Of a stretch of DNA of 64,000 nt, positions 34,278 through 50,154 are shown one piece after another. The translations under genes and the position numbers were made by a program. The stretch's first letter is position 1. The number at the start of each line of letters is the position of its first letter. The notes beneath the pieces were generated by a model. The model was not told the DNA's origin, did no database searches, and worked only from the letters and a program-made list of their open reading frames with translations. The DNA lies in assembly GCA_963705255.1 (NCBI GenBank), contig OY970061.1, positions 1,344,001 through 1,408,000 of the forward strand, read 5' to 3'. This DNA comes from an uncultured Methanoregulaceae archaeon. GTDB taxonomy: Archaea > Halobacteriota > Methanomicrobia > Methanomicrobiales > Methanospirillaceae.

Positions 34278-34856
34278 ATGAACGTTGTTGCATTCAACGG
34301 CAGTGCCCGTAATGACGGCAATACCGCCATTCTTGTCAATGCGGTATTTGCGGAACTGAAAAAAGAAGGTATCAGGACCGAGCTTGTCCAGCTGGCAGGA
34401 ACGGAGATCCGGGGTTGTAATGCCTGCGGCACGTGCTTCGCGAACCAGGACAAGCGGTGCGGAATAAAAGATGATATCCTCAACGACTGTATCGAAAAGA
34501 TGCTGGATGCCGACGGGATCATCCTCGCCTCGCCTGTGTATTTTGCTGATGTGTCCACCGGGATGAAGGCACTCATCGACCGGGCCGGCCTTGTGGCAAA
34601 GGCAAACCAGGACATGTTCCGGCGCAAGGTCGGGGCATCGGTGGTTGCTGTCCGCCGTGCCGGGGCCATCCACGCGTTTGACACGATGAACCATTTCTTC
34701 TTCATCAGCCAGATGGTAGTCCCCGGCTCATGGTACTGGAATATCGGCCTTGGGGGACTTGGCCCTGAGGATGTAAAAGGCGATGAGGAAGGGTTGATGA
34801 CCATGCGGACGCTTGGCGCCAATATGGCGTGGCTGCTGAAGAAGATCAACGACTAA
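34278..34856 (+). CDS. Iron-sulfur flavoprotein (Isf family)
   Basis: GSAR..GNT, CxxCxxC..C, ASPVYF. Confidence 0.9.
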   Translation: MNVVAFNGSARNDGNTAILVNAVFAELKKEGIRTELVQLAGTEIRGCNACGTCFANQDKRCGIKDDILNDCIEKMLDADGIILASPVYFADVSTGMKALIDRAGLVAKANQDMFRRKVGASVVAVRRAGAIHAFDTMNHFFFISQMVVPGSWYWNIGLGGLGPEDVKGDEEGLMTMRTLGANMAWLLKKIND

Positions 34857-34964
34857 TTTTTTTCAGATAGCCACGGTCAGGTCATCGGTTGCCACGATGA
34901 GCCCGGTACTGAGCTCAATGTTCTCATCATGGCAGTTGCCCCGGCACCGGCGCCTGTCCCTGAT

Positions 34965-35672
34965 TTACCACGCCCTGCCGTACGTGTTGTGGTACGTAAA
35001 CGATGCACGGTCCCTGCGCACCCTCAGGTAGCCCGGTTGCGCGGCGGGGTACCCCAGCCTGACGGCAAACGATACCGCCATATTCTCCGGTACCTCCAAG
35101 ATCTTCTTTACATCCTTCTGGACGGGACCGCTGAATGCGCTCATGATCTGGAACCCGATACCCAGCTCCTGGGCCGTGAGCCACATGTTCTCCATCAGGC
35201 AGCCGAGGCTCAGGATCCCGAGCACGTCTCCCTCCGATGCCGGCGCCCGCTTCCGGGTATCGTACACCACGACGAGGAGGGCCGGGCTCCCCTTGATCGT
35301 CTCGTCAAGGGTCCCCGGGGTCCTGTCCTTCATCGCGGCTTCGAGCTGTGCCTTGTCCCGCCATGCCGGCGGGAACCCCAGCCCCAGAATCCCGACCTTC
35401 TTCTTCAGCAACTCCTCCTCCGACACCGAGAGCTGCTCGAAATTTTCCCGGATAAAGTCCGGTGACGGGTAGGTCGGTATCTTCCCGAGCCGGTCCAGGA
35501 CTTTTCTGTCATCGACAACGATGATCTCGAAGTTCTGCATGTTGTGGGCAGTCGGCGCCCACCGGCCCGCTTCCAGGATCTTTTTTATATCGCGTTCAGG
35601 CACCTGCCTGTGCGGATCAAAGAATGCCCGGGTCGAATGCCTCTCCTGTATAATCTTCATCAGATCGTCCAT
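34965..35672 (-). CDS. Nitroreductase family protein
   Basis: RHSTRAF, APTAHNMQ, ENMWLTAQELGIG, LGYP. Confidence 0.9.
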   Translation of the reverse strand: MDDLMKIIQERHSTRAFFDPHRQVPERDIKKILEAGRWAPTAHNMQNFEIIVVDDRKVLDRLGKIPTYPSPDFIRENFEQLSVSEEELLKKKVGILGLGFPPAWRDKAQLEAAMKDRTPGTLDETIKGSPALLVVVYDTRKRAPASEGDVLGILSLGCLMENMWLTAQELGIGFQIMSAFSGPVQKDVKKILEVPENMAVSFAVRLGYPAAQPGYLRVRRDRASFTYHNTYGRAW

Positions 35673-35790
35673 GGTTCCTGCCTCTTGCAGCAGCTGAACT
35701 GCACGTTTGCATTGAACGATATATACCTATAAAATTTACTCAGGTACAGGTTCCGATGCGTTGCCGGTGCCGGGCGATTTTAAAGAATAG

Positions 35791-35817
35791 TGGCAGGGGG
35801 ATCGCCCCCCCCTGCCA
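35791..35817 (-). terminator. GC-rich hairpin downstream of the small membrane-peptide gene
   Basis: TGGCAGGGGG...CCCCCTGCCA inverted repeat. Confidence 0.45.
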
Positions 35818-35827
35818 TCGTGTGGTT

Positions 35828-35971
35828 TTACGGTTTCGGGCTCTGCCCTCCGTCTGATTCCATGTGATCGAGGACCCTGTCCCACATGACGAGGAGTCCC
35901 GGGATGATCACGTAGGCGAGCAGTCCGGCTCCTGAGAACCCGGCGGTGATCAACACTTCGTTGTCGACCAT
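35828..35971 (-). CDS. 47-aa single-TM peptide (below ORF-track cutoff)
   Basis: MVDNEVLITAGFSGAGLLAYVIIPGLLVMWDRVLDHMESDGGQSPKP*, preceded by a GGTGA RBS. Confidence 0.65.
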   Translation of the reverse strand: MVDNEVLITAGFSGAGLLAYVIIPGLLVMWDRVLDHMESDGGQSPKP

Positions 35972-35986
35972 GTCAGTCACCACGGA

Positions 35987-36490
35987 TTACGAGAGCGCCG
36001 GGATGCTGTCGGCCCAGGTCTCGACCTTGCTGCGGATCGCTTCATCGCTGTACAAAGTGAGAGTCGCCTGCGAACGGCTGAAGTTGACGTAGTAGATCTC
36101 GCCGTTTGCATCGTGGCACCTCAGCGTCACCGCGAAGGTCTCGTGGGCGGCGTCGCGGACCGCGGTCCCCCCAAGGGAGGTTGCGATCGCCGTGTCAGCC
36201 TCGATATGGTTTGCCACGGCCGTGAAGGCTGCGACCGACTCTGCCCGGATGCTGATGAGCCCGACGGTGTTTGCATCAGAGTCCTGGTAGAGGACCCGTG
36301 CGGTGTAACCCTGCCGGCCGCGTTCAACCGGGGGGTGGTTCACTCCTTGTGCGTTGTAGGAAACGCACTGGAAGGGGTTGTTCGTTATGACGCCCTGGAC
36401 AATAGTCTCGAAGGCAGTCACGTCTGGGAGCGGTGTCGCGAACTTTCGGACAGCGCTCTTCGTGGTAGTTCCTAATACGAAATCTGCCAT
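35987..36490 (-). CDS. 167-aa hypothetical protein
   Basis: Clean ORF with host-like codon use and a structured 5' leader; family not assignable. Confidence 0.8.
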   Translation of the reverse strand: MADFVLGTTTKSAVRKFATPLPDVTAFETIVQGVITNNPFQCVSYNAQGVNHPPVERGRQGYTARVLYQDSDANTVGLISIRAESVAAFTAVANHIEADTAIATSLGGTAVRDAAHETFAVTLRCHDANGEIYYVNFSRSQATLTLYSDEAIRSKVETWADSIPALS

Positions 36491-36501
36491 GTTTTTTTCT
36501 C

Positions 36502-36559
36502 TCCGAAGAGGTTCAGTATGAACCTTGAGGATGAGAAGAACTCATCAGAGTTCTTCGAA
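36502..36559 (+). repeat. Single dispersed twin-hairpin unit
   Basis: TCCGAA-GAGGTTCA gta TGAACCTT-GAGGATGA-GAAGAACTC atca GAGTTCTTC-GAA. Confidence 0.8.
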
Positions 36560-36813
36560 TTCCGAAGAATTCCGTATAACCTCGATGGGGTAAAGGGAGG
36601 CAACCTGCCTTCCCTTAACTTCTGTGGGTTCGTCCTGAACCTAGGTTTTTCTTGCGTCTCGGGGCGCCCTTTGACATACCATCATTGGTTTTTGGAATAT
36701 ATCGGGTAATTTGTGGGGGAGCAATCCGGGGGCATACAAGGCCGTAATTGCCGTTTCGGGCAGTTTGGAGTGGATCGACATTGAACGGGGCCCGAAATAA
36801 AAAAAAGAGTGGA

Positions 36814-37373
36814 TTATTTCAGGGATGCCGGAAAGTCGAGGTCATACCTCAGACCTCCCGGGTAGACCAGGTAATATCTCCAGCCGCAGGCCGGGGAGTA
36901 GACCCAGATCATGATCCGGTCAAGGATCTTCTTTGCCAGCTCGCGGAGGCTGTCCACTTTACCGGTATAGAGCTCGCGCAGTTTTGCCGCGTTCGGCACC
37001 GGCAGGCGCGAGCGGAGGGCGAGCACCAGCACCGAGCCGGCTTTGTTGAGCCCGATGAGATTGATCGGGATTGAGGGTTCGCTCAGGCGGACCGGAAGAT
37101 AGCCGTAACGTACCTGAGAAGATCCATCGCCTCATAAACGAGCGGATTGCTCCGCGTCCGGCCCGGACGGGCTACTGTAGCCGTCACATCGATGGGAGAA
37201 TGGACGATGACCTCGGTCCCGGTCCTCTCCGGATCCGGTACGGCGTGTTTCCGGCATTTCACCTGATTTGCAGATTTCTGTCCGCAAGTCTTTCCTCTGG
37301 CGGGAGATTTTCCTCCCTTCCCCGCCCGGGAGATACTATGTGGCCTCCCGGTCGTTTTCTCTTTTGTATTCAT
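36814..37373 (-). CDS. Degenerate Hjc/PD-(D/E)XK-like protein (frameshift near 37110)
   Basis: Joined reading ...YEAMDLL..YGYLPVRLSEPSIPINLIG....SVLVLALRSR... follows the Hjc spacing pattern. Confidence 0.55.
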
Positions 37374-37808
37374 TCAATCACTCCTTTTTCAGCATCACAT
37401 CCTGTTCTCCTGCGATTCTTTGGCACCGGGATATTCCTTCCCGGATCTGTCACGAACGCCGGTCCAAACCGGAGGTCCCCTAGGAGTATTACCTACGGGA
37501 ACGACCGGTGGCTACCGCACCGTCATTCAGAGACGCACACTACGATCCGGGGGCAGACGAGACCCAAAACGGGAACTCACCTGAAGGATCGCAGCGCGAT
37601 AGTTGCATTCCCACAATGCCTTGAGAGGTACAGCAAGTACACCGGTCACTGCCGCAATGAACACCAGGCCAGGGACTAGGAGGCAGGTAATCCACTCCGT
37701 CGTATGCAGAGGGACCCCGGGCCCCGTGATCGATGCCTGTGTCAGTGTACAGTCTTCGTGTGGCATTTGTGATTATCTAAGGAAAAGATAAAATCACATA
37801 TATATTAG

Positions 37809-38057
37809 GTGGATGATGCAGGTTATATGGAAAATATTTGGGCCTGTGTACGGGAACCGGGGCCGGATTTGTATGACCCGGAGGTGCCATCGATTGAACT
37901 GCAGAACACCCTCAGTAAATATTCCCCAATGAATGCATCGCAGATCAGCGCACTATCTCATGCAGACCTGCCCTATAGAGCATCAAAAGATAATGAACCC
38001 ATAAAATACGAACTCGTTTTTTATCGCGATCCGCAAATGTTCGTGAGCCAAAACTGA
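37809..38057 (+). pseudogene. C-terminal remnant of a DUF4065/Panacea (SocA-like) antitoxin
   Basis: YSPMNASQISALSHADLPY....PIKYELVFYRD resembles the family C-terminus; N-terminal part absent. Confidence 0.6.
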
Positions 38058-38197
38058 TGAGGGGGGACACAAGTACGAACGGAGGCCGCTCACGACTTTT
38101 CAATAAAGAGCGATCTCTTTGCTACCAAAATCTCCCAAAATGTTTCTGAGTAGTAATTCATCAGGAGATCATATCCTTTATAATACGCCGGAATCCC

Positions 38198-38240
38198 AAA
38201 TACTAATAAATACTAAAATCTACAAGATTAGTATTTAGTA
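38198..38240. promoter_or_regulatory. Inverted-repeat operator upstream of fic
   Basis: TAAATACTAA (38207-16) / TTAGTATTTA (38228-37), plus a direct AAATACTAA copy, downstream of TTTATAA. Confidence 0.6.
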
Positions 38241-38250
38241 GGACGGCTCC

Positions 38251-39618
38251 ATGACGCAACTTCCTGAAAAACCACCGGACTGGACGAAACACCTCACAGG
38301 GGGACTGGTAAACTATTTGATCAATGCGGAGTTCGCAAAATCTGTGGCGGAATATAATCGTCGTTACCTCTTCTGGGACGAACTGAAGTACCGGCTGCCA
38401 GATGAAGAGCAGCGGAGGACGGCGTGGGCTGTCATGAAGTTTTACCGGTCGATGCGACAGGAGATTCCTTATTCCTCACTCAGACTCACCTACTCGATCA
38501 TTCCTGAGATAGTAAAAAGCCTCCACGCGATCGACAGCTACCTCACCGGGAACATCCGCATCCACAACAAGACCATCCGGCTCGAACAGTCCTACATCAT
38601 CAACTCGTTCATGGAGGAAGCGATCGCATCAAGCATTCTCGAAGGTGCAGCAACGACACGGAAAGCTGCAAAGGAGATGCTCCGGAAAGGCAGGAAGCCG
38701 AAGAACAGTTCCGAGCAGATGGTTGTCAACAACTACGAGGCTATGAACTTTATCCTTGAACACAAGGACGACCCGCTCACTCCTGATCTCATCCTTGAGA
38801 TCCACCGGCTGGTAACAAAAGGAACCATCGATGAAGACTCGGTCGGGCAGTTCCGGACCAACAATGATATCGTCGTCGCAAATCCAGCCACCGGCGTGGT
38901 CTTTCATACGCCACCTGATTATCGAGAGATAGAACACTCCGTAGCTGAACTCTGCGATTTTACCAACCGCGTTGAACAGGATTCCGGAAAGGGAGATGCG
39001 GATTACATTCACCCGGTCATCATGGGGATTATCCTGCACTTCCTCATCGGGTATATCCACCCGTTCAATGACGGGAACGGGAGGACTGCCCGCAACCTCT
39101 TCTACTGGTACGTCCTCTCACGCGGCTACTGGCTGTTTGAGTACATGCCCATCTCGCGGATCATTCTCCGGTCGAAAAAGAAGTATTCGCTTGCATACCT
39201 CTTTACCGAATACGATGAGATGGATCTCACCTATTTTATCCTTTATAACCTGTCCTGCGTTGATGAAGCCCGGAGAGATCTCCTGAAATACCTGGAGGGG
39301 AAGCAGACCGAACAGAATGCAACAAAAGCTATCATTAAAAAGATCCGGGATATCAACCAGCGTGAAGGGGATATTCTCCGGCACATGATGGAGCACAGTG
39401 ACGAGTATTTCACAATCCGGGAGATCATGCAGATGTATACTACCGTATATGAAACTGCCCGGACCGATCTCCTTCATCTTGCAGATCTCGGATACCTGAA
39501 CAAGGAAAAGCGGGGACGGGAATTCATCTTCATCTTCAATGAAAGCAGCGAACTGTGGAAACACAATGCAAAGAAAGATGCTACCGTCAAACCTCATCCA
39601 CGTCAGGAGGAATCCTGA
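38251..39618 (+). CDS. Fic family protein with C-terminal winged helix
   Basis: SSILEG, canonical HPFNDGNGRTAR, C-terminal ETARTDL..L. Confidence 0.93.
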   Translation: MTQLPEKPPDWTKHLTGGLVNYLINAEFAKSVAEYNRRYLFWDELKYRLPDEEQRRTAWAVMKFYRSMRQEIPYSSLRLTYSIIPEIVKSLHAIDSYLTGNIRIHNKTIRLEQSYIINSFMEEAIASSILEGAATTRKAAKEMLRKGRKPKNSSEQMVVNNYEAMNFILEHKDDPLTPDLILEIHRLVTKGTIDEDSVGQFRTNNDIVVANPATGVVFHTPPDYREIEHSVAELCDFTNRVEQDSGKGDADYIHPVIMGIILHFLIGYIHPFNDGNGRTARNLFYWYVLSRGYWLFEYMPISRIILRSKKKYSLAYLFTEYDEMDLTYFILYNLSCVDEARRDLLKYLEGKQTEQNATKAIIKKIRDINQREGDILRHMMEHSDEYFTIREIMQMYTTVYETARTDLLHLADLGYLNKEKRGREFIFIFNESSELWKHNAKKDATVKPHPRQEES

Positions 39619-39837: not shown

Positions 39838-40775
39838 TTAGCTTAGCCTGTTAGGAAGACGATGATGTCCTACCTTGTCATGCGATTGTAGACTTTTTAA
39901 AATGGTATTCATTTCATCCATTTCTTCTTTTGAAAAATTATCACTGTCCATTACTTTATTCCCGTAATTGTTTAGTTTTTCAAATAATCCTAGTTTTTTA
40001 TCTGGAAAATTCCGAGAGGATTGTCCGGTAACCCACTTAAACTGCGAATCCGAAAATTGTTTGAAAGGCCCATTCATACATGCTGAAACAAGACGGTCTC
40101 TCTTAGTAGGATCTTTCGATGCTAATATGATATTCATGATTCTCGTTTCTGATAGGCTGAAAATTGGATCATCAGGATTCAAACTTTTTTTCCAGTCATA
40201 AAAAAATACAGCATAATCAAATATGCGTTTACCATAACCATATTGCCCTCTGCCCCATTGTTCAAGAGCTTGCGTAATTTTTTCGAGGGAGACATCACGA
40301 TTATCATCTAAAAATTGTCGAATGCGTTTTCCCGATTCCCAAAATTCGGATGTTGTTGTTATTTTTTGCTTTCTGATCTCCCCACATATGTTTTTATTGT
40401 ATCTTTGAACTTCAGCTTTTGAAAAAGCTCGGATTTTTTCTTCAAGTTTGCTTTTTTCTTGCATCAATGAAGTACTAATACTTTTTAATCCAGATTGTGT
40501 TTTATTGCTAGTTGCTGTATCCCCAGCAATGTACTTTTTAGTACCATTATTAAAAGTTAAAATCAGCCCTTTCGGTCTTGCAATTATTCTGACTTTTAAG
40601 CCTACATTTTTTTTAACGTCGGCCCAGTTGATCTCATTATTCGTATTTACATTGATTGGTTTTCCTGGAGGCCCCCTGCAAGAACTTCTCTAGCCCAAGC
40701 TTGTGCTTCATCTGCTGTCCATCGTAACCCTCTTTCTGGGATAGTTATAACGATATTTGCAGGATTATATTCCAT
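39838..40775 (-). CDS. Protein with C-terminal DUF1016/YhcG N-domain-like region (frameshift at C-run near 40675)
   Basis: MEYNPANIVITIPERG... joins the tracked ORF with +1 base; FWESGKRI...GYGKRIFDYAVFFY...LSETRI..I..SKD...RD pattern. Confidence 0.6.
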
Positions 40776-40779
40776 GATA

Positions 40780-42831
40780 TCATTCCCGAGATGCAGCTCG
40801 TAATTTTTCACAGGAACGTAAAAATTTTTTTCTTAAAACGTCTACATTCTGAAAATGCTGTAATACTTGGTCTTTATCGAATTTTTCCTGAGGACTATTC
40901 TCCATGAAATCCTTGAGTCGTCGTTCTGCCATAACTTCAGCAATCATTTCATATAAAATCGAATCAGCGACTCGAGGTTGAGTTTCGTATACGAGACCGA
41001 TCCGAGCCCCTTTTGTATTAAACCAAATATCTCCATCAGACCAAATAGGCATAATCTCATTCTGAATTGGATCGAGCGAGTCATCTGTTATCGGTGATAA
41101 ATCCTGGATTGTACCTTTCCGTCCATCATCACCTTTATTTCCTCCTTTTGGAGGACTTCTGGAAATTATTTCTGGTTCTATTTCAATCCATATCGAATGT
41201 AACGCTCGCTCAAGTTCAATTGACTCAGTTGAAGAATCGGATCCCTTTTGTCTTGGCGGTTGATTTTGTAATATACACCGGATGTAATTTTTTCCTATTC
41301 CAAAATCATCAATGATCGGGATGTCTAATGTATAAACAATTCTTCCTTTTTTATCTGCAACAGCAGGGTCGATAATTGGAATATCATGATATTCCCATGC
41401 ATTCAATCGAGATAATCCTTTATCAAGAGCTTCTATTGTTAATTGTAGATATTTTTGATATTCCTTTGTGGGATTTAGAATGATAATTTCAATGTGGGCC
41501 TTATCCTCATAGTTGTAAAATTCCTTATCGAGTTTAATATCTGATATGAACGGATGTTCTGGAGATTCTTTTTTATTTCTTTTTCTCGTGATTTCATCAG
41601 TACCTGACCACGGATTAAAATCTGGTACTTCTGCAAATGCTCTTTGCAAAACGTCTAAATTTATTTGAGCTCGCTTTCTATCTTTTTCGGTCAAGCGAGG
41701 TTTAAATTTTCTTTTTTCATAAGGTATAATAAAATCTTCAACATTTTGCTGAAGCAAGTCCTGAACTTTTTTATAGTGGGGATGAGGAGTAAATCCACGG
41801 TGCCCTGGTTTTTCACATGCGCATAAGAAGCGTCCTTCGAAGTTACAATCGTAACTTGCCCAACCATAAATTCTATCCTGTAATTCTGTACTAATTTTTC
41901 GACCGAAATCTGTGTCACGTTCAATAACCTGTGTACCCTTTTTTATTAGCGCAATACCCCTTAACTCCCGGGGTAGTGGTTCTTCTGCTAAAAAAAACGC
42001 CACATTAGTTAATTCCCCAATTTTTTTCTTATTGTAGGTTACTGGGATTTTTGAGATTTTTTTCACTATTGGTTTTCCACTATCTGTTGCTGGAACAGGG
42101 AAGTGAGGCATTCCAATTTTTTGAAGGTCTTTATCAATATATCCAAATCTGATTTGAACACCTTTTTTTATTGCAGCACACCAAGTTTTTGAAATATCTT
42201 GAATGATTCTTTCGGCATCCAATAATTCATCATGAACCGGGTCAATCACACCTCGGATGATAATTTCTGATCCCTCAGGTTCATCAGATTTCATGAGATA
42301 GTCTTCAGATAAAACCCAAGTCCAATCATTTCCGGATCTCGTCCAATGAGACGCCATTGTATCTGTTTTATGGAAGGATTTGGGAGAGGCAATTTTTGTT
42401 CGTACGATTGTTTCAGTTCCAGCTACAATAAGTAAGGATTTACCCTGCCCTCTTGATCCAAGAGAATTTAATGGCTTACCTAACCCGCCCAAATAGTGAA
42501 AATTGCCCCAACTGCAGTGATCATCATGGCAATCTTCGGCACCTGAAATCCTACCCCAAAAACATTTTTTACAATGGGGCATCCCGGTAGTACCATAATC
42601 TCTTATAGACAGGATACGATTTTTGGGATCATATCTGATTATAATTTTTACATCCTTATAATCAGATTTTTTTGCGTCAATCGAATTTTGAATCGACTCT
42701 TGAAAAATACCTTTCGCATGTGACTCATAATCATCTTTATATGATTCCATTAACCGATGTGTATTTGCACTTAATTTATGACTCTCTTTAGCGTAGTCGG
42801 GAATTGTTGTTTTTAATGATTCTGTGGACAT
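40780..42831 (-). CDS. GHKL (MORC/Hsp90-like) ATPase, 683 aa
   Basis: ESIQNSIDA (N box), IRDYGTTGM (G1), GSRGQGKS (G2), EGSEIII (G3). Confidence 0.85.
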   Translation of the reverse strand: MSTESLKTTIPDYAKESHKLSANTHRLMESYKDDYESHAKGIFQESIQNSIDAKKSDYKDVKIIIRYDPKNRILSIRDYGTTGMPHCKKCFWGRISGAEDCHDDHCSWGNFHYLGGLGKPLNSLGSRGQGKSLLIVAGTETIVRTKIASPKSFHKTDTMASHWTRSGNDWTWVLSEDYLMKSDEPEGSEIIIRGVIDPVHDELLDAERIIQDISKTWCAAIKKGVQIRFGYIDKDLQKIGMPHFPVPATDSGKPIVKKISKIPVTYNKKKIGELTNVAFFLAEEPLPRELRGIALIKKGTQVIERDTDFGRKISTELQDRIYGWASYDCNFEGRFLCACEKPGHRGFTPHPHYKKVQDLLQQNVEDFIIPYEKRKFKPRLTEKDRKRAQINLDVLQRAFAEVPDFNPWSGTDEITRKRNKKESPEHPFISDIKLDKEFYNYEDKAHIEIIILNPTKEYQKYLQLTIEALDKGLSRLNAWEYHDIPIIDPAVADKKGRIVYTLDIPIIDDFGIGKNYIRCILQNQPPRQKGSDSSTESIELERALHSIWIEIEPEIISRSPPKGGNKGDDGRKGTIQDLSPITDDSLDPIQNEIMPIWSDGDIWFNTKGARIGLVYETQPRVADSILYEMIAEVMAERRLKDFMENSPQEKFDKDQVLQHFQNVDVLRKKFLRSCEKLRAASRE

Positions 42832-42837
42832 AAAAAA

Positions 42838-43101
42838 TTACGGAAGGGAGATTTCTTTCTCTACCTTTCCTTGGAATGCGTTTTCAACAGTTCTAACAGA
42901 TTCCTTCAGAGTTCGGAGAATGTATTTTACTTGGGCATCAGTATACTCATATCTGTTCTTGTCCGCTAATGGAGCAATAAGTTCGATGGTGTGTACTGCT
43001 TTCTCTAATCGGGCTTCCCCAAGTTTCCGAAATTTCTGTGCTTTGGGGCTTTCAACCTGAGTTTTTTCTTCCATATTTTGTTCCTCAAAACGATTATACA
43101 C
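42838..43101 (-). CDS. Small helical protein of the type seen in R-M/defence loci
   Basis: KFRKLGEARLEKA..IELI..LA....YEYT..QV..I...L. Confidence 0.75.
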   Translation of the reverse strand: MYNRFEEQNMEEKTQVESPKAQKFRKLGEARLEKAVHTIELIAPLADKNRYEYTDAQVKYILRTLKESVRTVENAFQGKVEKEISLP

Positions 43102-43194
43102 ATACTAGAATCAATTGAATGATCCAGTATTTGAGCTCATAAATTATTTATATTTTTCTTAAAAATGAAAATTTTTCAATGCAATTATTGATTC

Positions 43195-44184
43195 TTATAT
43201 TGCTTCTACAGAAGCTACAGGCATTATAGTATTTAATGTAGAATCTTGAAAAAAATATTTTTTGGGGACCCTTTCTATTGCAAAACGAATCCTTTTAGAG
43301 GCGATATTGTAAGCTTTCTCATTCAGCTCAATGCCGACAGATTTACGACAGAGCTCCAAGGCACCTAGCATTGTGGTTCCGCTCCCTGCATGAGGATCGA
43401 GAACAAGATCATTTTGTTTTGATGACGCTAGAATAATCCATCGTATTAAATCCAGCGGTTTTTGAGTTGGATATTCAGAATTACTTATTATGGGGGGAAT
43501 TTCAAGGATACTTTTTGGATATCTTTTTCCAACATTCTTCATGGAATATGGTTCTTTTTTGAAAGAATCCTGAGTCGCGGGATGATTCTTTTTCCTATTA
43601 CGAGTATATGGTTTGCCGTTTGTCATGACTTGTTTTGTGTAAAATTTTGTATTATCGATTCGAGCTCCTTTTTTACAGAAAACGAATATATTTTCATGAA
43701 TCGGTAGCGGTTTGAAATTGGAAGACCAGGGTATATTATTGCGGTTCCAGATTATCTCAAATCTGAAATCAAAATATTTTCTGAAACTATTATAGACATC
43801 AATCAATGAGGGTTGCTTTCCAAAAATATAGACAAGGCCATTATCATTTAACACGTTATGATAAAGATCAGCCAAAACATCCCAATCTGGAGCTTCGTCC
43901 CATGGAAGCTTAGTAATACCATAGGGAGGATCGTCAATGATAAGATCCACAGAACTTGGAGATAATGTTTTAAGATGTTCCTCGCAATAGTCTTGCACTA
44001 ATGTTGGCTGATAAAATGAAGGAGGATCACGCCCAAATGATGTAATATGTCTAAATTTATTCTTATCACCTTGTCGATAATATTCGACCAAGTAATAGTA
44101 ATTTCCATTTACCCCTTTTGATTTTTTTATGTAATAACGTGACAGTCTGTGTTCATCGACTTGATCTAAGGAAAGAGGAGACAT
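43195..44184 (-). CDS. Beta-class N4/N6 DNA methyltransferase with N-terminal extension
   Basis: DPPY (motif IV) precedes YPTQKP and VLDPHAGSGTT (motif I). Confidence 0.92.
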   Translation of the reverse strand: MSPLSLDQVDEHRLSRYYIKKSKGVNGNYYYLVEYYRQGDKNKFRHITSFGRDPPSFYQPTLVQDYCEEHLKTLSPSSVDLIIDDPPYGITKLPWDEAPDWDVLADLYHNVLNDNGLVYIFGKQPSLIDVYNSFRKYFDFRFEIIWNRNNIPWSSNFKPLPIHENIFVFCKKGARIDNTKFYTKQVMTNGKPYTRNRKKNHPATQDSFKKEPYSMKNVGKRYPKSILEIPPIISNSEYPTQKPLDLIRWIILASSKQNDLVLDPHAGSGTTMLGALELCRKSVGIELNEKAYNIASKRIRFAIERVPKKYFFQDSTLNTIMPVASVEAI

Positions 44185-44390
44185 CAGTGATCAAGGCCTC
44201 CCATTTTTTCTTTGGATTTTGACTCATTTGGCTCAGTTTTTCCTCCGACCCGCTTGAATTCAAAAACCATTCTTCTTATTGCATCTCTAGCTGCTTCTGC
44301 TTCATTGAGATAATAGGTGCCAACAATTTTTTCGAATTCTTTTGATAGTTCGTCAGGTAGATCGGTATGACATTTCTTTGTTTTTGCCAC
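44184..44390 (-). CDS. Ribbon-helix-helix (CopG-like) protein
   Basis: beta-strand-LPDEL...YLNEAEAARDAIRR; stop overlaps the MTase start. Confidence 0.75.
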   Translation of the reverse strand: MAKTKKCHTDLPDELSKEFEKIVGTYYLNEAEAARDAIRRMVFEFKRVGGKTEPNESKSKEKMGGLDH

Positions 44391-44680
44391 AAAGTTACTC
44401 TAGAGTAATTATGTAAATACTTTGCGATTACTTTGTAGTAACTAATGAATATCTTTTTATCTTCATTCTTAATCCGTGGTCTCATCCATTTCCTATCCTA
44501 TGTGAAATTATTCCACACAAGTCTCATCGCGAAGAATGGGGCCAGAAGATTACCCGAAACGCTCCCACAAACATTTCCATTCATGAGCAGGTTATACGAC
44601 GGTATCGTGCTTCAGAAAGATGCCGCACGAGAACATTGACCCCTAGGTAACCCAAACATCCGCGAACTATCCCCACCCCT

Positions 44681-44999
44681 TCCCAAAACCTTCCGGCCCA
44701 ACTCAGTACCTCCCAAAAATAATTTTGCCTCAGGTCCGATCGCGCCAAAATTTTTTTTGGCGCAACTCAGTACGAGCCAGAAAAATATCTGGGACCCCCT
44801 CCCAAAAATGACCGTTCACGCCTAAACACCAGTTGTCTGACACGGCCCGGTCGCGCCAAAAAAATATTTGTCCCAACTCAGATCGGCCCAAAAAAATTTT
44901 TGGCGCAACTCAGTACGAGCCAAAAAAATATTTGCCTCGCACTGGATCGAGCCGGAAAAATATCCGGCGCGATCGGGACCGGGCCGGAAAATCTTCCGG
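44681..44999. repeat. Two blocks of exact 32-bp-period palindromic repeats
   Basis: 16-bp CCRRAAAAWWWTYYGG-like units at 44681, 44713, 44745, 44777 and 44856, 44888, 44920, 44952, 44984. Confidence 0.88.
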
Positions 45000-45111
45000 A
45001 CCGCACAACCCAATCAACTGACCAACCCCTCTCTTCCGGTCCGCAACGGGAAAAAGAACTCCATGCAAGATCCGCAAGGATATTCACCACAGGTAATAAA
45101 ATACGTGCAGG

Positions 45112-45480
45112 ATGCTGAAGACCAGCTACTTCGCGAGGAGTGCCAAAGAGCCCGGTGCGGTCTCGATAGCCCGCTTCCCGCCGCGATGGTATTCCGGCAG
45201 GAGATACTTCAGGCTCGCCCCGACACCTGAGATGCTGAAACTCGAGGACTGGGAAGAATACCAGAGAAGGTACCGGGAGGAGATCCTCTCGGGCCTCGAT
45301 CCCGATGAGATCCTCCGGGACCTGGACGTTGCGGGGGCAGGTCATGATGTCATCCTGCTCTGCTTCGAGAAGGAACGGACGCACTGCCACCGCGGGCTGG
45401 TCGCAGAATGGTTTTCTGAAACAATAGGGCTCGAAGTCCCCGAAGTCGGATCCCCGTCCACGATCCAGGCGACACTCTAG
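45112..45480 (+). CDS. DUF488 family protein
   Basis: KTSYF, VSIAR.PP, LAP, LLCFEK...CHR..VAEW. Confidence 0.85.
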   Translation: MLKTSYFARSAKEPGAVSIARFPPRWYSGRRYFRLAPTPEMLKLEDWEEYQRRYREEILSGLDPDEILRDLDVAGAGHDVILLCFEKERTHCHRGLVAEWFSETIGLEVPEVGSPSTIQATL

Positions 45481-45568
45481 AACCTGTGGTTGGCAGTCGC
45501 GAGCCTAGCGAGGGGGATACGGGACCGGCAGGAACGGGGAATGACAGCCAACCTGCCGGAAAACCAAC

Positions 45569-45603
45569 CTATATATTTCCGTCCCGCAATTAACAATTGT
45601 GAA
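45569..45603 (+). promoter_or_regulatory. cysK promoter: TATA box followed by TTAACAATTGTGAA palindrome
   Basis: CTATATATTT at 45569-45578; palindrome at 45590-45603. Confidence 0.7.
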
Positions 45604-45687
45604 TTATTCTCCGGCAGAAGCCCCATCCCCGAAAAGAGCCAACGGACACCGGAGACAGAATCCCTGAATTCCTGAGAGAGGTTGCCT

Positions 45688-46671
45688 ATGAAAATCCACG
45701 ACAATATCACCAAAACCATCGGCAATACCCCGCTCGTCCGGCTGAACCGGGTGACAAAAGGCCTGGACGCAACCGTGCTTGCCAAAGTCGAGTCCTTCAA
45801 CCCGATGGGCAGCGTGAAGGACCGGATCGGGGTTGCCATGATCGAGGCTGCCGAGACCGCAGACCTGATAACGCCGGATACCATCATCCTCGAGCCGACA
45901 AGCGGCAATACCGGTATCGCCCTTGCCATGGTGGCCGCTGCCCGGGGTACAGGATCACGCTGGTCATGCCGGAGACGATGAGCATCGAGCGGCGCAAGCT
46001 CCTCAAAGCCTTCGGCGCCGAGCTCATCCTCACGCCCGGCAAAGAGGGGATGAAGGGAGCGATAGGAAAGGCCGAGGCCCTCCTAGCAGAGAACCCCCGG
46101 TATTTCTACATCCCCCAGCAGTTCCGGAACCCGGCAAATCCCGCCATCCACCGGAAGACAACGGCAGAGGAGATCTGGCGGGACACGGACGGGAAGGTGG
46201 ATGCCGTTGTCTCCGGTGTGGGGACCGGCGGGACAATCACGGGAATAGCCGAAGTGATCAAGCCCCGCAGGCCCTCGTTCAGGGCCATCGCCGTAGAACC
46301 CGATGCATCCCCCGTCCTCTCGGGAGGCCAGCCCGGCCCGCACAAGATCCAGGGCATCGGTGCGGGTTTTGTTCCCGACGTGCTCAGGAAGGATCTCCTG
46401 GACGAGGTGATCCGCGTGACATACGAGGATGCTGTTGCCGCCGCACGGAAGATGGCCAGAGAGGAGGGCATCCTCATCGGCATCTCCGGCGGGGCAGCGA
46501 TATGGGCAGCGCTCCAGTCTTGCGGCACGGAAGGAGTACGCAGGCAAGACCATCGTGGTCATCCTGCCGGATACCGGGGAGCGGTACCTGAGTACGGAAC
46601 TCTTCGAAGTCCGGGATGTTAACCAGGACCCCGGAGAGGAGAAGGATCGTCAGTATCCTCCGGCCGGGTAA
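45688..46671 (+). CDS. cysK: Cysteine synthase A (frameshifts near 45945 and 46515)
   Basis: [47 protein letters not shown] across three frames. Confidence 0.92.
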
Positions 46672-46683
46672 CGGGGCAGGATC

Positions 46684-47646
46684 ATGGTCTTCGACCGCCT
46701 CCGGGAAGAGATCCGGGCAATCTTTTCCAAGGATCCCGCCGCCCGCTCAACCCTCGAGATCCTCTGCTGTTACCCCGGGCTCCATGCCCTCTGGTTCCAC
46801 CGCCGGACGCACTGGCTCTGGACCCATAACTGGAAATTCTGGGCCCGGTTCGTCTCCCATATCAGCCGGTTCCTGACCGGCATCGAGATCCATCCCGGGG
46901 CGCAGATCGGGCGCCGCGTGGTCATCGACCACGGCATGGGGGTCGTCATCGGCGAGACTGCCGAGGTCGGCAACGATGTCCTCATCTACATGGGCGTAGT
47001 GCTCGGGGGCACTGCCCTTGAGAATGTCAAGCGCCACCCGACGGTCGAAGACAACGTGATCATCGGTTCCGGTGCGATAATTCTCGGCCCGGTACGTATC
47101 GGGGCGGGCGCGAAGGTGGGGGCGGGGTCCGTGGTGGTCCGCTCCGTACCCCCGGGCGCCACGGTCGTCGGGGTCCCGGGAAGGATCGCCGGACCGGAAT
47201 GCGGGACACGACCGGAAGACGAGGAGGCCATGCCCGACCCGATGCTCAGGGTGGTCAGCCGGCTCCTCGACCGGCAGAACCAGCTCGAGGAGAGGCTCCG
47301 CGCCCTGCAGCAGTCGCTCCCCCCCGCCCCGGGCGAGGACCGCAGGGCAGAACAGGTCTGCGAATCGGAGATACGGCAGGTGCTCAGGGAGGTGATCGAT
47401 CCCGAGGTGGGGATCGATATCGTGGACCTCGGCCTCATCAAGGAGATCCGCGTGACCGCGAACCATGTAGAGATCGACATGATCCTGACCAGCAAGGCCT
47501 GCCCGCTCGTGGACCACCTCTCAGAGCAGGTGAAACGGAAGGTGCTGGGCGTGTGCGGGATCGAGGAAGTCGACGTGAAGGTCCTCGACGAGCCCTGGAA
47601 CTGGGACCGGTTCGTGCACCAGCGGGGAGCGCTCAAGAAGATCTGA
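46684..47646 (+). CDS. cysE: Serine O-acetyltransferase fused to C-terminal DUF59
   Basis: [23 protein letters not shown]; then [16 protein letters not shown]...CP..PW. Confidence 0.92.
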
Positions 47647-47880
47647 AAACCCGGATGACCACGACAGCCCGGAAGACGCGGGCTTGAGATCCGGTGGCCG
47701 CCCGGTCTCTCTCATTCAGGGAAACCGTCAGGCTCCAGAGGGACAAAAGGAGACCGGGTTTTCCACCTTCTCATTCAGCATGGCCGGTATCGTGCGGGAT
47801 AGGAACTGACTCCATAAAAACGATACATCTGCTCTCACCGGGTTTCTTTTATTTCACTCCGGTTTCATCCTCTGACGGAT

Positions 47881-48948
47881 TTAGTGCGAATGCGCAGGCA
47901 GCCCGTCATGGTCGTGCTCCGCAATATCGTGATAGTCAGGCCCCGAGGCAGTCGACGGGTCGACATGGATGGTGGCATCCGAAAGATACCGAAGATGGTG
48001 AAGGAGTTCGTGCCGGAACTCTTTCGCAATCGCATGGCCTTGTTCCACGGAAAGGGATGAACCGACCGTGATGTTGACCTCCGCATGGAGCCGGTGGCCC
48101 AGCCAGCGGACCTTTACATCGGTGATCTCCACCACTCCTTCAACGTACTCAGCAGTATGGCGGATCTCGTCGGTGATTGACGGGTCGACGCCATCGAGCA
48201 GCCGGGTGAAGATCGTTTTTCCCGACTCCCAGACAATCCAGAATATGATGATCGTGATGATGAGACCGATGACCGGGTCGGCAATCGGGAACCCGAGATA
48301 GACCCCGGCCGCACCGATCAGGACTGCAAGGCTCGCAAGCCCGTCTGTCCGTGCGTGCTGGCCATCTGCAACGAGCGCTGCACTGCCGATCTCGTTTCCT
48401 ACCCGGATGCGGAGCCGGGCCACGGCTTCATTCCCGGTAAACCCGACAAGTGCTGCCGCTGCTACCGCCCAGAGGAACGTCACCTGCTGCGGGTGAAGGA
48501 GGCGGTCTATGGAGACGTACCCGGCAACAACAGCCGATACCAGAATCATCAGAACCACGAACACGCCCGCAAGGTCCTCGACCCGCCCATACCCGTAGGT
48601 GAACCGTTTCGTCGGCTTCCACCGGGCCAGCAGAAACGCGAACAGGAGCGGGATCGCGGTGAACGCATCGCCGAAGTTATGGATGGTGTCGGCGAGCAAT
48701 GCGATGCTGCCGGAATAATAGACGATGATTATCTGGAACAGTGCGGTGATGAAAAGGCCGGCAAACGACCACTTGACCGCCCGGATCCCCCGTTCGGTGG
48801 TGAGAATGGATGGATCGACAATACCATGCGTGTGGGCATGGCCGTGGTGATGGTCGTCACGGTCATCCCCGCGATCATGCCCGGGGAGATGGCCATGATC
48901 AAGTCCGTTATCTTCCCGGGATTCATGGTCTTCAGTAGTGAGGATCAT
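47881..48948 (-). CDS. Cation diffusion facilitator with His-rich termini
   Basis: SIALLADTIH, YGYGRVE, ADGQHARTD, IHVDP. Confidence 0.92.
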   Translation of the reverse strand: MILTTEDHESREDNGLDHGHLPGHDRGDDRDDHHHGHAHTHGIVDPSILTTERGIRAVKWSFAGLFITALFQIIIVYYSGSIALLADTIHNFGDAFTAIPLLFAFLLARWKPTKRFTYGYGRVEDLAGVFVVLMILVSAVVAGYVSIDRLLHPQQVTFLWAVAAAALVGFTGNEAVARLRIRVGNEIGSAALVADGQHARTDGLASLAVLIGAAGVYLGFPIADPVIGLIITIIIFWIVWESGKTIFTRLLDGVDPSITDEIRHTAEYVEGVVEITDVKVRWLGHRLHAEVNITVGSSLSVEQGHAIAKEFRHELLHHLRYLSDATIHVDPSTASGPDYHDIAEHDHDGLPAHSH

Positions 48949-48966
48949 GCTCTTTCACCTCCTCAT

Positions 48967-50154
48967 TCACCCGGCCGGGTCTGGGGAAGGGTTCGTAGTG
49001 TCCAGGGAGACCACCGCGATGGTATTGCCGCTCTCCCGGCAGTACGTCCCGACCCGCCGGAAAACATGCGGCACCATCGACCCCGGGGTCAGGAGGAGCG
49101 AGGATTCCCCGACGAGTGCCCGCAGGATACTTTTGTCTATCACGCCGTACGTGAAATCGAGCGATATCGATTCACGCTCGGCCAGATTCTTCGCCCTGGT
49201 CCCCATTGCCCCGCACCTGTACGACGGGTGGTCTGCTATCCACGCCAGGATCTCACCGGCACCGCTCTTATCCACGTCGCAGACCGTGATGGTCCCAAGG
49301 GCCCTGCCCGCGTGTGGTTTACTGAAGCTCTGTTCGAGCGAGCTGACCAGCTGGAGGACGGACTTCGGCGACTCCGTCTTCTCCATCATCTGCCGCGAGA
49401 CGAGCTCCGTGTAGACTTCCAGCACCGCAGGCATCCGGAGATTGGCAGCAGCAATGAGTGCCGTGCTGGTGAAGACCTCCTCGGGAGAGCCGGCATGGAT
49501 CACGGTCCCCCTGTTCATGAGGATGATATGGTCCGCCCAGAGGTACGCGAGCTCCACGTCATGGGTCGAGATGATGATCGTCGTCCCCCTCGCATTGAGT
49601 TCGTCGAGCAGCTCCATGAGGTCCGCGGCCCCGGCCGGGTCGAGCGAGCTGGTGGGTTCGTCGAAGATGAGGACCTCCGGCTCCATTGCAAGGGTACCGG
49701 CGATTGCGGCCCGCTTCTTCTCGCCACCGCTCAGCTGGTGGGGCGGCCGCTTCTCGTACCCGGTAAGGCCCACGGCCGCAAGCGATCGGGCAACCGCCGC
49801 CTGGATCTCGTCCGGCGTCATGCCGAGGTTGAGGGGGCCGAACGCCACGTCCTGGTACACCGTCGGGGCAAAGAGCTGGGTATCCGAGTTCTGGAATACC
49901 AGCCCCACCTTCTTCCGCACCTCACGCAGCGAGCGGCTGTCGTACCGGAGCGGTTCACTGTTGAAAAGCACCCGTCCCTTTGAGGGTTCAAGAACTCCGT
50001 TGCACATCAGGAGCAGGGTGGTCTTCCCGGCCCCGTTGGGGCCGACCAGTGCAACCTTGGCTCCTTTTTTTATCGAGAATGTTACCCCGGAAAGCGATTC
50101 ACGGCAGTTCGGGTAGGCATAATGAATATTGTCAAATTCGAGCAGGGTTGTCAT
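48967..50154 (-). CDS. cbiO: ECF cobalt/nickel transporter ATPase with C-terminal extension
   Basis: GPNGAGKT, LSGGEKKR, DEPT. Confidence 0.88.
   Translation of the reverse strand: MTTLLEFDNIHYAYPNCRESLSGVTFSIKKGAKVALVGPNGAGKTTLLLMCNGVLEPSKGRVLFNSEPLRYDSRSLREVRKKVGLVFQNSDTQLFAPTVYQDVAFGPLNLGMTPDEIQAAVARSLAAVGLTGYEKRPPHQLSGGEKKRAAIAGTLAMEPEVLIFDEPTSSLDPAGAADLMELLDELNARGTTIIISTHDVELAYLWADHIILMNRGTVIHAGSPEEVFTSTALIAAANLRMPAVLEVYTELVSRQMMEKTESPKSVLQLVSSLEQSFSKPHAGRALGTITVCDVDKSGAGEILAWIADHPSYRCGAMGTRAKNLAERESISLDFTYGVIDKSILRALVGESSLLLTPGSMVPHVFRRVGTYCRESGNTIAVVSLDTTNPSPDPAG

Follow-up and report, generated by a model that had tools for sequence, protein, structure and literature searches.

A horizontally acquired GHKL ATPase and DNA methylase cassette in a Methanoregulaceae archaeon: a candidate methylation-gated defence system

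The 64,000-nucleotide stretch of DNA analysed here (the window; contig OY970061.1 of assembly GCA_963705255.1, positions 1,344,001 to 1,408,000 of the forward strand) comes from an uncultured Methanoregulaceae archaeon and carries, on its minus strand at 39838-44390, a cassette of five co-oriented open reading frames (ORFs) in tight packing. In order of reading, these encode a putative ribbon-helix-helix (RHH) regulator of 68 residues (44184-44390); a beta-class N6-adenine/N4-cytosine DNA methyltransferase of 329 residues (43195-44184); an orphan protein of 87 residues, p87 (42838-43101); a GHKL+S5 ATPase of 683 residues that appears paraMORC2-like (40780-42831); and a partner protein, T, of 312 residues when intact (39838-40775). 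Our analysis reveals that the cassette was horizontally acquired and suggests that, on balance, it most likely works like a restriction-modification (R-M) system, that is, as a methylation-gated defence. We favour this reading, with modest confidence, because the cassette is a foreign insert, the ATPase and T are inseparable, the adjacent methylase is exchangeable and the neighbours, in the window as in related loci, are those of defence islands.

The five genes form a single unit in the ORF listing with translations. The stop codon of the RHH candidate and the start codon of the methylase share base 44184, and the intergenic gaps are 6 nt between p87 and the ATPase and 4 nt between the ATPase and T. 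The GC content is 0.35-0.38 across 40000-44500, as against 0.58-0.67 in 45000-49999 and 0.51-0.63 in 34500-37999. These values bear out an earlier sequence-only reading of the window, made without database searches, which had described an AT-rich insert of five tightly packed, co-oriented genes. When 16 kb around the cassette was used as a DNA query against 20 relatives, matches were obtained for the genes on either side (cysK/cysE and Fic), and none of the matches listed falls within 39838-44390. The cassette is of foreign origin, since its GC content of 0.35-0.38 stands against about 0.6 around it, it is without a DNA match among those listed from the 20 relatives and its close ATPase family is rare in the host phylum (found in 2 of 401 genomes, one of them the window's own). 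No tRNA, integrase, att site or flanking direct repeat was found at the edges of the insert, and an Rfam search across 30-50 kb of the window returned no match.

The ATPase matches no model in Pfam, PADLOC or NCBIfam, and sequence searches of the PDB returned no GHKL chain. It belongs to the GHKL superfamily by its motifs and predicted Bergerat fold: the boxes E45xxxN49xxD52A, D78xG80xxG83 and G125xRG128xG130K, which contain motifs I (ExxxNxxD), II (DxGxG) and III (GxxGxG), are invariant in the ATPase alignment (24 sequences; 23 loci of the close family were retrieved). An AlphaFold model (mean predicted local distance difference test score, pLDDT, 81.5) matches Hsp90, TRAP1 and Topo VI-B in Foldseek at E ~1e-13, and model residues 19-378 align with SMCHD1, MORC2/3, the MutL N-terminal domain, GRP94 and ParE across both the GHKL domain and the S5-fold transducer that directly follows it. 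In the model this ATPase module (19-378) is followed by an Ig-like beta-sandwich (421-551) and by strands with a long helical hairpin (552-683); in a protein atlas, residues 420-683 fall into unnamed clusters only. The statement of the sequence-only reading that the protein has all the GHKL boxes is thus upheld across the homologues, and the predicted fold extends it to GHKL+S5.

Two further motifs characterize the ATPase. A Cys4 knuckle (42514-42573; C87, C90, C101 and C106, with W92 and W108) forms an insertion in the ATP-lid region that separates the G1 box from the G2 box; it is invariant in 24 of 24 close homologues, and each of its cysteines occurs in only 10-11 of the 112 full-length wider-family sequences in which residue conservation was counted. 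The knuckle is specific to the subfamily and may bind zinc. The S5/transducer domain has at its C-terminal end an ExxxH motif (E340-K-P-G-H344; 41800-41814), which a long helix (351-375) closely follows and which is likewise invariant in the 24-sequence alignment. In the wider family H344 is conserved in 112 of 112 sequences, as are N49, G83 and G130, and E340 is conserved in 97, with glutamine in 12 more. The ExxxH motif has been described as a signature of paraMORC2 proteins (Iyer et al. 2008, PMC2292703), and the ATPase family carries it. We regard the ATPase as probably paraMORC2-like, an assignment made by the ExxxH motif and the GHKL+S5 layout. The window ATPase and its close homologues match no Pfam model, HATPase_c_3 and the MORC models included, and are therefore not placed among the MORC proteins proper.

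T, which is read in two frames in the window (40647-40811 and 39838-40467; the break is weighed below), is the constant companion of this ATPase. A T gene directly follows the ATPase gene in 10 loci by BLAST and, by hidden Markov model (HMM), in 13 of 13 loci with any downstream sequence, 7 of these 13 having been in the seed of the T HMM. The starts and stops of the two genes overlap or lie 4 nt apart, and the ATPase and T are an inseparable pair. A complex prediction for the two proteins gave a score of 0.02, which is evidence neither way. In the predicted structure of T (pLDDT 85.8) a disordered linker joins an alpha/beta domain at the N-terminus (1-85) to a helical domain (~107-278), the best structural matches of which are the DNA-binding domains of ParB, Spo0J, Noc and KorB. 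Foldseek gives the match to ParB-CDP a probability of 0.85 at an E-value of 0.6, a range that is ambiguous for helical domains; the region outside ~97-301 was barely covered by the fold searches, and BFVD returned nothing. In the protein atlas, the lead for T is a 'DUF1016/ParB HTH' cluster (score 0.91, on only 140 shared features) in which 23% of members carry PF17761 (YhcG/DUF1016_N); this model was matched by 0 of 23 T homologues at E<=5, a setting at which HMMER filters drop most weak matches. The model suggests that T is a putative ParB/Noc/KorB-like DNA-binding partner. Its seven invariant residues form no recognizable catalytic set. At L021, two downstream ORFs considered as T were rejected, and the actual T gene is at L021:10024-10893. 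L007 carries a second, shorter T-like gene (L007:11090-11686, 198 aa) 3' of the full-length T; its product is 47% identical to residues 78-234 of the window T fragment, indicating a duplication of the helical domain.

The methylase is well defined. It matches PF01555 at E 9.6e-33 (114.4 bits; cut-off 26.7), and its DPPY motif at residue 85 precedes the S-adenosylmethionine (AdoMet) loop DPHAGSGTT near residue 252, the motif order (IV before I) that, with a profile score above cut-off, defines beta-class N6-adenine/N4-cytosine enzymes. Both catalytic motifs had been read correctly from the sequence. The PDB relatives of the enzyme include M.MboIIA, CcrM, DpnA and N4-cytosine methylases, and L002 carries an orthologue 87% identical to it. 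Within two genes of the ATPase-T pair, a methylase is found in the window and in 11 of the 23 close-family loci (L001, L002, L004, L006, L007, L008, L010, L011, L013, L016 and L021), the remaining 12 loci ending too early; at L021 all three genes, those for the ATPase, T and the methylase, overlap in head-to-tail order. The class of the methylase varies. It is PF01555 in the window, L002, L008, L010, L011 and L021; Eco57I/N6_Mtase (PF07669/PF02384) in L004, L006, L007 and L016, with which the L001 methylase is grouped as 46% identical to that of L007; and D12 (PF02086) in L013. With the cytosine-C5 (C5) methylase (PF00145) beside the remote relative L031, four unrelated methylase classes accompany the close and wider ATPase family. 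The ATPase, T and an adjacent methylase are all that is conserved across the close family, so that of the five genes that the sequence-only reading had joined into one system three recur elsewhere and two, the RHH candidate and p87, do not generally do so.

The close ATPase family is small and scattered, with 28 proteins among 5.8 billion clusters, the sole taxon named being Thermoplasmata. A second sample of 401 genomes, around the Thermoplasmata genome G412, yielded G412 itself and one fragmentary match (E 5e-6), and no relative of the ATPase is encoded in the viral contigs scanned. The wider family is larger (244 matches at E<=1e-3 when 1.84 billion representative proteins were searched with a profile); most of its members lack a Pfam domain, and in a few there is a match to HATPase_c_3 or an MG2-like Ig domain. 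One plan is shared by five wider-family loci of the host phylum, an ATPase with a partner gene and, in four of the five, a methylase nearby; the fifth ends 190 nt past the partner gene. The orders are methylase, winged helix-turn-helix (wHTH) gene, ATPase, 238-aa gene and U (a protein described below) in L051; ATPase, 297-aa gene and N6_Mtase in L052; small ORF, ATPase, 247-aa gene, 77-aa gene and N6_N4 methylase in L053; U, ATPase, 245-aa gene and contig end in L054; and ATPase and 219-aa gene, followed by a convergent HhH-GPD gene and C5 methylase, in L031. The partners in these equivalent positions (219-297 aa) were considered as T homologues and rejected, no similarity being detected. The neighbours of related loci include SIR2, HD, DndB, GmrSD_N, DUF4238, Nmad3 and an SbcCD-like pair, as in defence islands, and these loci also hold integrases and a serine recombinase. 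L007 combines several such genes, with Nmad3, an SbcCD-like Metallophos protein paired with a 902-aa SMC/AAA_15 protein, and an integrase. At L031:1-1179, a few kb from the remote ATPase relative, the gyrB gene of genome G072 holds an intein with a LAGLIDADG homing-endonuclease domain.

The small upstream genes are less constant. A palindrome (44389-44414) abuts the start codon of the RHH candidate, and a second inverted element (AGTTACT/AGTAAT) lies about 25 nt farther upstream; from its sequence, the AT-rich region 44389-44470 (minus strand) is a candidate operator and promoter. The 68-aa protein resembles the NCBIfam RHH models CdrS (E 0.0088) and NikR (E 0.0094), both at about 16 bits where the cut-offs are at least 100, and has no Pfam match at E<=0.1 and no useful PDB sequence match; the earlier assignment of an RHH gene is accordingly kept as putative, in keeping with a weak similarity and the position of a controller protein. 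For p87, no family was matched beyond a chance-level hit to PADLOC mad1 (E 0.027). Its orthologues, 78 aa long and about 90% identical, align from residue 10 of p87, so that the true start of p87 may be the ATG at 43074. In 12 loci a protein of 330-450 aa, U, with an RHH-like N-terminus and a winged-helix-like C-terminus, is encoded 5' of the ATPase. That the RHH candidate and p87 are split pieces of U was considered and rejected (hhalign probability 0.1; hmmsearch E 0.05-0.3). One subclade (L015, L016, L019, L020 and L023) conserves, between U and the ATPase, a Cys-rich ORF of 61-70 aa (1488-1679 in L016) with a zinc-ribbon-like pattern, CC..EP...W......YC..CG; these ORFs were rejected as p87 homologues, having no similarity to p87 despite their equivalent position.

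In the methylation-gated defence that we favour, the beta-class methylase would mark the host's own DNA, and the effector would be the GHKL+S5 ATPase, which, like MORC, MutL and Hsp90, is presumably a dimeric clamp worked by ATP, with its obligate partner T. T would serve in the effector as a ParB/KorB-like helix-turn-helix DNA binder, and the effector would act on DNA without the methylation mark. Because closely related ATPase-T pairs adjoin different methylase classes (L010 versus L013, for example), site recognition would most likely come from the methylase, or from a general sensing of methylation state, and not from a co-evolved restriction enzyme. The effector action that we prefer, because no nuclease is detectable, is an ATP-dependent entrapment or occlusion of unmodified DNA, which would block its replication and expression. 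The small RHH protein may autoregulate the operon, as an R-M controller protein does. The sequence-only reading had proposed a methylation-linked self/non-self system, and the four methylase classes that flank the ATPase-partner pair fit that proposal. The most far-reaching version of such a system, a nuclease-free immunity in which a MORC/SMCHD1-like, ATP-driven clamp and a ParB-like loader would recognize self by its DNA methylation and would trap or silence invading DNA that lacks the mark, is a speculation that we consider unlikely.

Several observations weigh against methylation-gated defence. In the window, T is a single gene whose reading frame is interrupted by a 1-nt indel within the G5C2 run 40670-40676, a frameshift that the sequence-only reading had already recognized. 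An intact allele, P0039 (312 aa), shows full identity to the window on either side of the break, across 35 residues ahead of it and 278 beyond it, and public contigs (runs X1-X4) are identical to the window where they overlap it, no piece among those listed spanning 40670-40676. The cysK-like (PALP) cysteine synthase gene in the same window (45682-46622, plus strand) is also read in two frames, 45682-45981 corresponding to profile positions 1-79 and 45966-46622 to positions 85-281, a split for which a frameshift or an assembly indel may account; since this housekeeping gene is split too, an assembly indel in T is plausible. Among the related loci the RHH candidate is seen in the window only, and p87 orthologues occur only in L002 and L008, where their position is equivalent. 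Most relatives have U, which has no match in the window's own genome, so that the window version may be incomplete or rewired. The counts of methylase adjacency overstate independence, because some loci are near-duplicates (L005/L006, with L004 close to L006), and methylases abound in defence and mobile islands, so that adjacency by chance has a higher baseline. In the cassette proteins and the 23 T homologues the searches detected neither a nuclease nor a helicase nor any other known effector domain, so that 'restriction' is here without a demonstrated executor, and the limited literature set that was searched held no experimental support for a nuclease-less branch of the ExxxH type.

The main rival, which we think rather doubtful, retains a methylation-gated defence and has the effector cut DNA. 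The cut would be made by a cryptic nuclease, with the ExxxH motif, ATPase residues 552-683, T residues 1-85 and p87 as candidate sites, or by a host nuclease that the ATPase-T pair might enlist by analogy with the way MutL licenses MutH/UvrD. The conservation in the S5 domain of a histidine (112 of 112) together with glutamate or glutamine (109 of 112) is stricter than a mere contact site would usually require, the fold searches barely covered ATPase residues 552-683 and T outside ~97-301, and other GHKL defence proteins, paraMORC3/VcSduA (PMC12137116) and Tiamat, bear nucleases. On the other side, and in agreement with the sequence-only reading, no nuclease family was matched in the five window proteins (Pfam, PADLOC and NCBIfam) or in the 23 T homologues, even at E<=5, fold cover being slight or absent for ATPase residues 552-683, T residues 1-96 and p87. 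The invariant residues of T include no typical catalytic set. Other GHKL enzymes have their gamma-phosphate 'switch' residue just ahead of the transducer helix, and the ExxxH motif, which lies just before that long helix, may serve ATP hydrolysis in this way instead.

It is quite unlikely, in our estimate, that the cassette serves a mobile element as a module for maintenance or regulation, in which the methylase would be an orphan or addiction methylase, and the ParB-like binder, RHH/wHTH adaptors and ATPase motor would act in segregation, stabilization or epigenetic control. The ParB/Noc/KorB-like helical domain of T, the sporadic occurrence and foreign composition of the cassette, and an RHH candidate (RHH proteins being classical centromere or operator binders) would suit such a module. 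So would the integrases or recombinases close to L001, L007, L051 and L053, which in this respect also count against a defence function. The insert of ~4.7 kb, however, has no integrase, replication gene or edge direct repeats, no relative occurs in the viral contigs scanned, the neighbours are mostly defence genes and not plasmid or virus backbone, and we know of no partition system with a GHKL ATPase. Very unlikely is an incidental adjacency of the methylase, with the ATPase-T pair, with or without U, as a self-contained system such as a modification-dependent Type IV-like one or a MutL-like repair factor that only gathers beside methylases in variable islands. The methylase does lie upstream and co-directional in the window clade and convergent downstream in most others, the differing methylase classes imply no co-evolved protein interface, and the C5 methylase of L031 is paired with an HhH-GPD glycosylase. 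Yet a methylase adjoins the pair in every close-family locus that is long enough (11 of 11), besides the window, and in 4 of 5 wider-family ones; the methylases of the window and L021 are inside the same tightly packed or overlapping operon; and no second restriction gene stands consistently beside the methylases.

Around the cassette, a 455-aa Fic-domain protein (38251-39618, plus strand; PADLOC SoFic, E 1.8e-46) converges on it from one side. Fic homologues with 78-80% DNA identity occur in other contexts in the relatives G001 and G006, which suggests that the spot may be a variable defence hotspot. Between the Fic gene and a 167-aa ORF lies a region of about 1.7 kb (36500-38200) of mixed composition without a convincing ORF or Rfam match, the short dispersed repeats of which recur elsewhere in the genome at 88-91% identity. 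On the other side, beside the insert, is a repeat element of about 330 nt (44685-45016) made of 32-nt units (CCAAAAAAATATTTG...CAACTCAGnnCGnG), and at least five more copies of it, 71-81% identical, are present at other sites of the genome. Between this element and cysK is a gene (45112-45480, plus strand) for a DUF488 protein of the 'active DUF488-N3' subclade (E 2.9e-13).

The closest precedent for the cassette is the prediction, made in 2008, of GHKL+S5 paraMORC ATPases in R-M operons (Iyer, Abhiman & Aravind, PMC2292703). The paraMORC2 proteins of that study, like the ATPase described here, combine a GHKL domain with intact ATP motifs and an S5 domain, are sporadic and laterally mobile, and are linked to methylases. 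The paraMORCs of that study mainly accompany SF-II helicases, Vsr and RE-fold endonucleases, whereas the cassette family has T and U and no helicase or nuclease; its paraMORC2 proteins are mostly cyanobacterial or Gram-positive, whereas the identifiable taxa of the cassette family are archaea. The Cys4 knuckle in the lid is an addition of the cassette subfamily. Compared with eukaryotic MORC2/MORC3 and SMCHD1, the ATPase is only 12-16% identical over the ATPase module and lacks CW, coiled-coil and hinge domains.

GHKL defence proteins that bear a nuclease have experimental support (PMC12137116; preprint 10.64898/2026.09.30.754977). Tiamat (from the preprint) and VcSduA, a paraMORC3 of Shedu type I-D (PMC12137116), share with the cassette a GHKL ATPase, which is anti-phage there, and some Tiamat-like genes have methylases and MADS1-like or BrxR-like regulators as neighbours. 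Both proteins end in a PD-(D/E)xK nuclease (NOV_C/DUF3883 or DUF4263), whereas the cassette ATPase ends in an Ig-like domain and a helical tail, and the methylase association of Tiamat is reported only together with a helicase. A further parallel is provided by cassettes of a C5 methylase, HEF_HK/HATPase_c_3 and Response_reg_2 (Bellieny-Rabelo et al. 2021, PMC8011034), in which a methylase is conserved beside a paraMORC-related GHKL protein and, as in the window, there is an inseparable small partner and no obvious nuclease. Those cassettes are bacterial and mostly have C5 methylases, and, unlike them, the window proteins have no match to HEF_HK (PF19191), Response_reg_2 (PF19192) or HATPase_c_3.

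The multi-gene MADS systems (mad1-8) resemble the cassette as a methylation-associated defence with a small regulator (10.1101/2023.03.30.534895, PMC13662399). MAD6-8 are mandatory signature genes (10.1101/2023.03.30.534895), and MAD3-MAD4 are an OLD-like ATPase-nuclease. Membership of MADS was rejected for the cassette, in which no mad model is matched beyond mad1 (E 0.027, chance level) and mad2; the mad2 match of the methylase (E 4.5e-12) reflects generic methylase similarity, and this protein scores far better on generic Type II models (MTase_II, E 8.7e-36). With BREX and Type III R-M the likeness is one of functional analogy only, in methylase-supplied specificity and methylation-gated discrimination; only the DNA methylase is shared, and the cassette has no PglZ, BrxC, BrxL, Res or helicase. 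BREX is an example of exclusion without a recognized nuclease. In PADLOC-DB v2, the models matched are those of the methylase (generic MTase_II) and of the neighbouring SoFic gene; the ATPase, the 54-aa head of T and the RHH candidate match no model at E<=0.1, and the 209-aa tail of T has a chance-level match to PDC-M51A only (E 0.045). The sequence-only reading could match the architecture to no named system, which remains so for the systems in PADLOC and is qualified by the 2008 paraMORC prediction (PMC2292703).

In the limited literature set that was searched, the combination of ATPase, T, U and methylase is undescribed. This suggests that, while the kind of system was predicted in 2008 (GHKL+S5 in R-M contexts), its make-up is new. 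The locus can be seen as a compact four-to-five-gene version of a nuclease-less branch, with an obligate partner T, a recurrent U and a pluggable class of methylase. If it functions in defence, it would either show how DNA is restricted by a MORC-like clamp in which no classical nuclease takes part or bring a new nuclease centre to light, and it would offer a tractable prokaryotic model for MORC-type ATPases that read DNA methylation. If, as is less probable, immunity proves to be nuclease-free, the exchangeable methylase would be its specificity module and the clamp would be a prokaryotic counterpart, and possibly a precursor in logic, of eukaryotic MORC/SMCHD1 epigenetic silencing.

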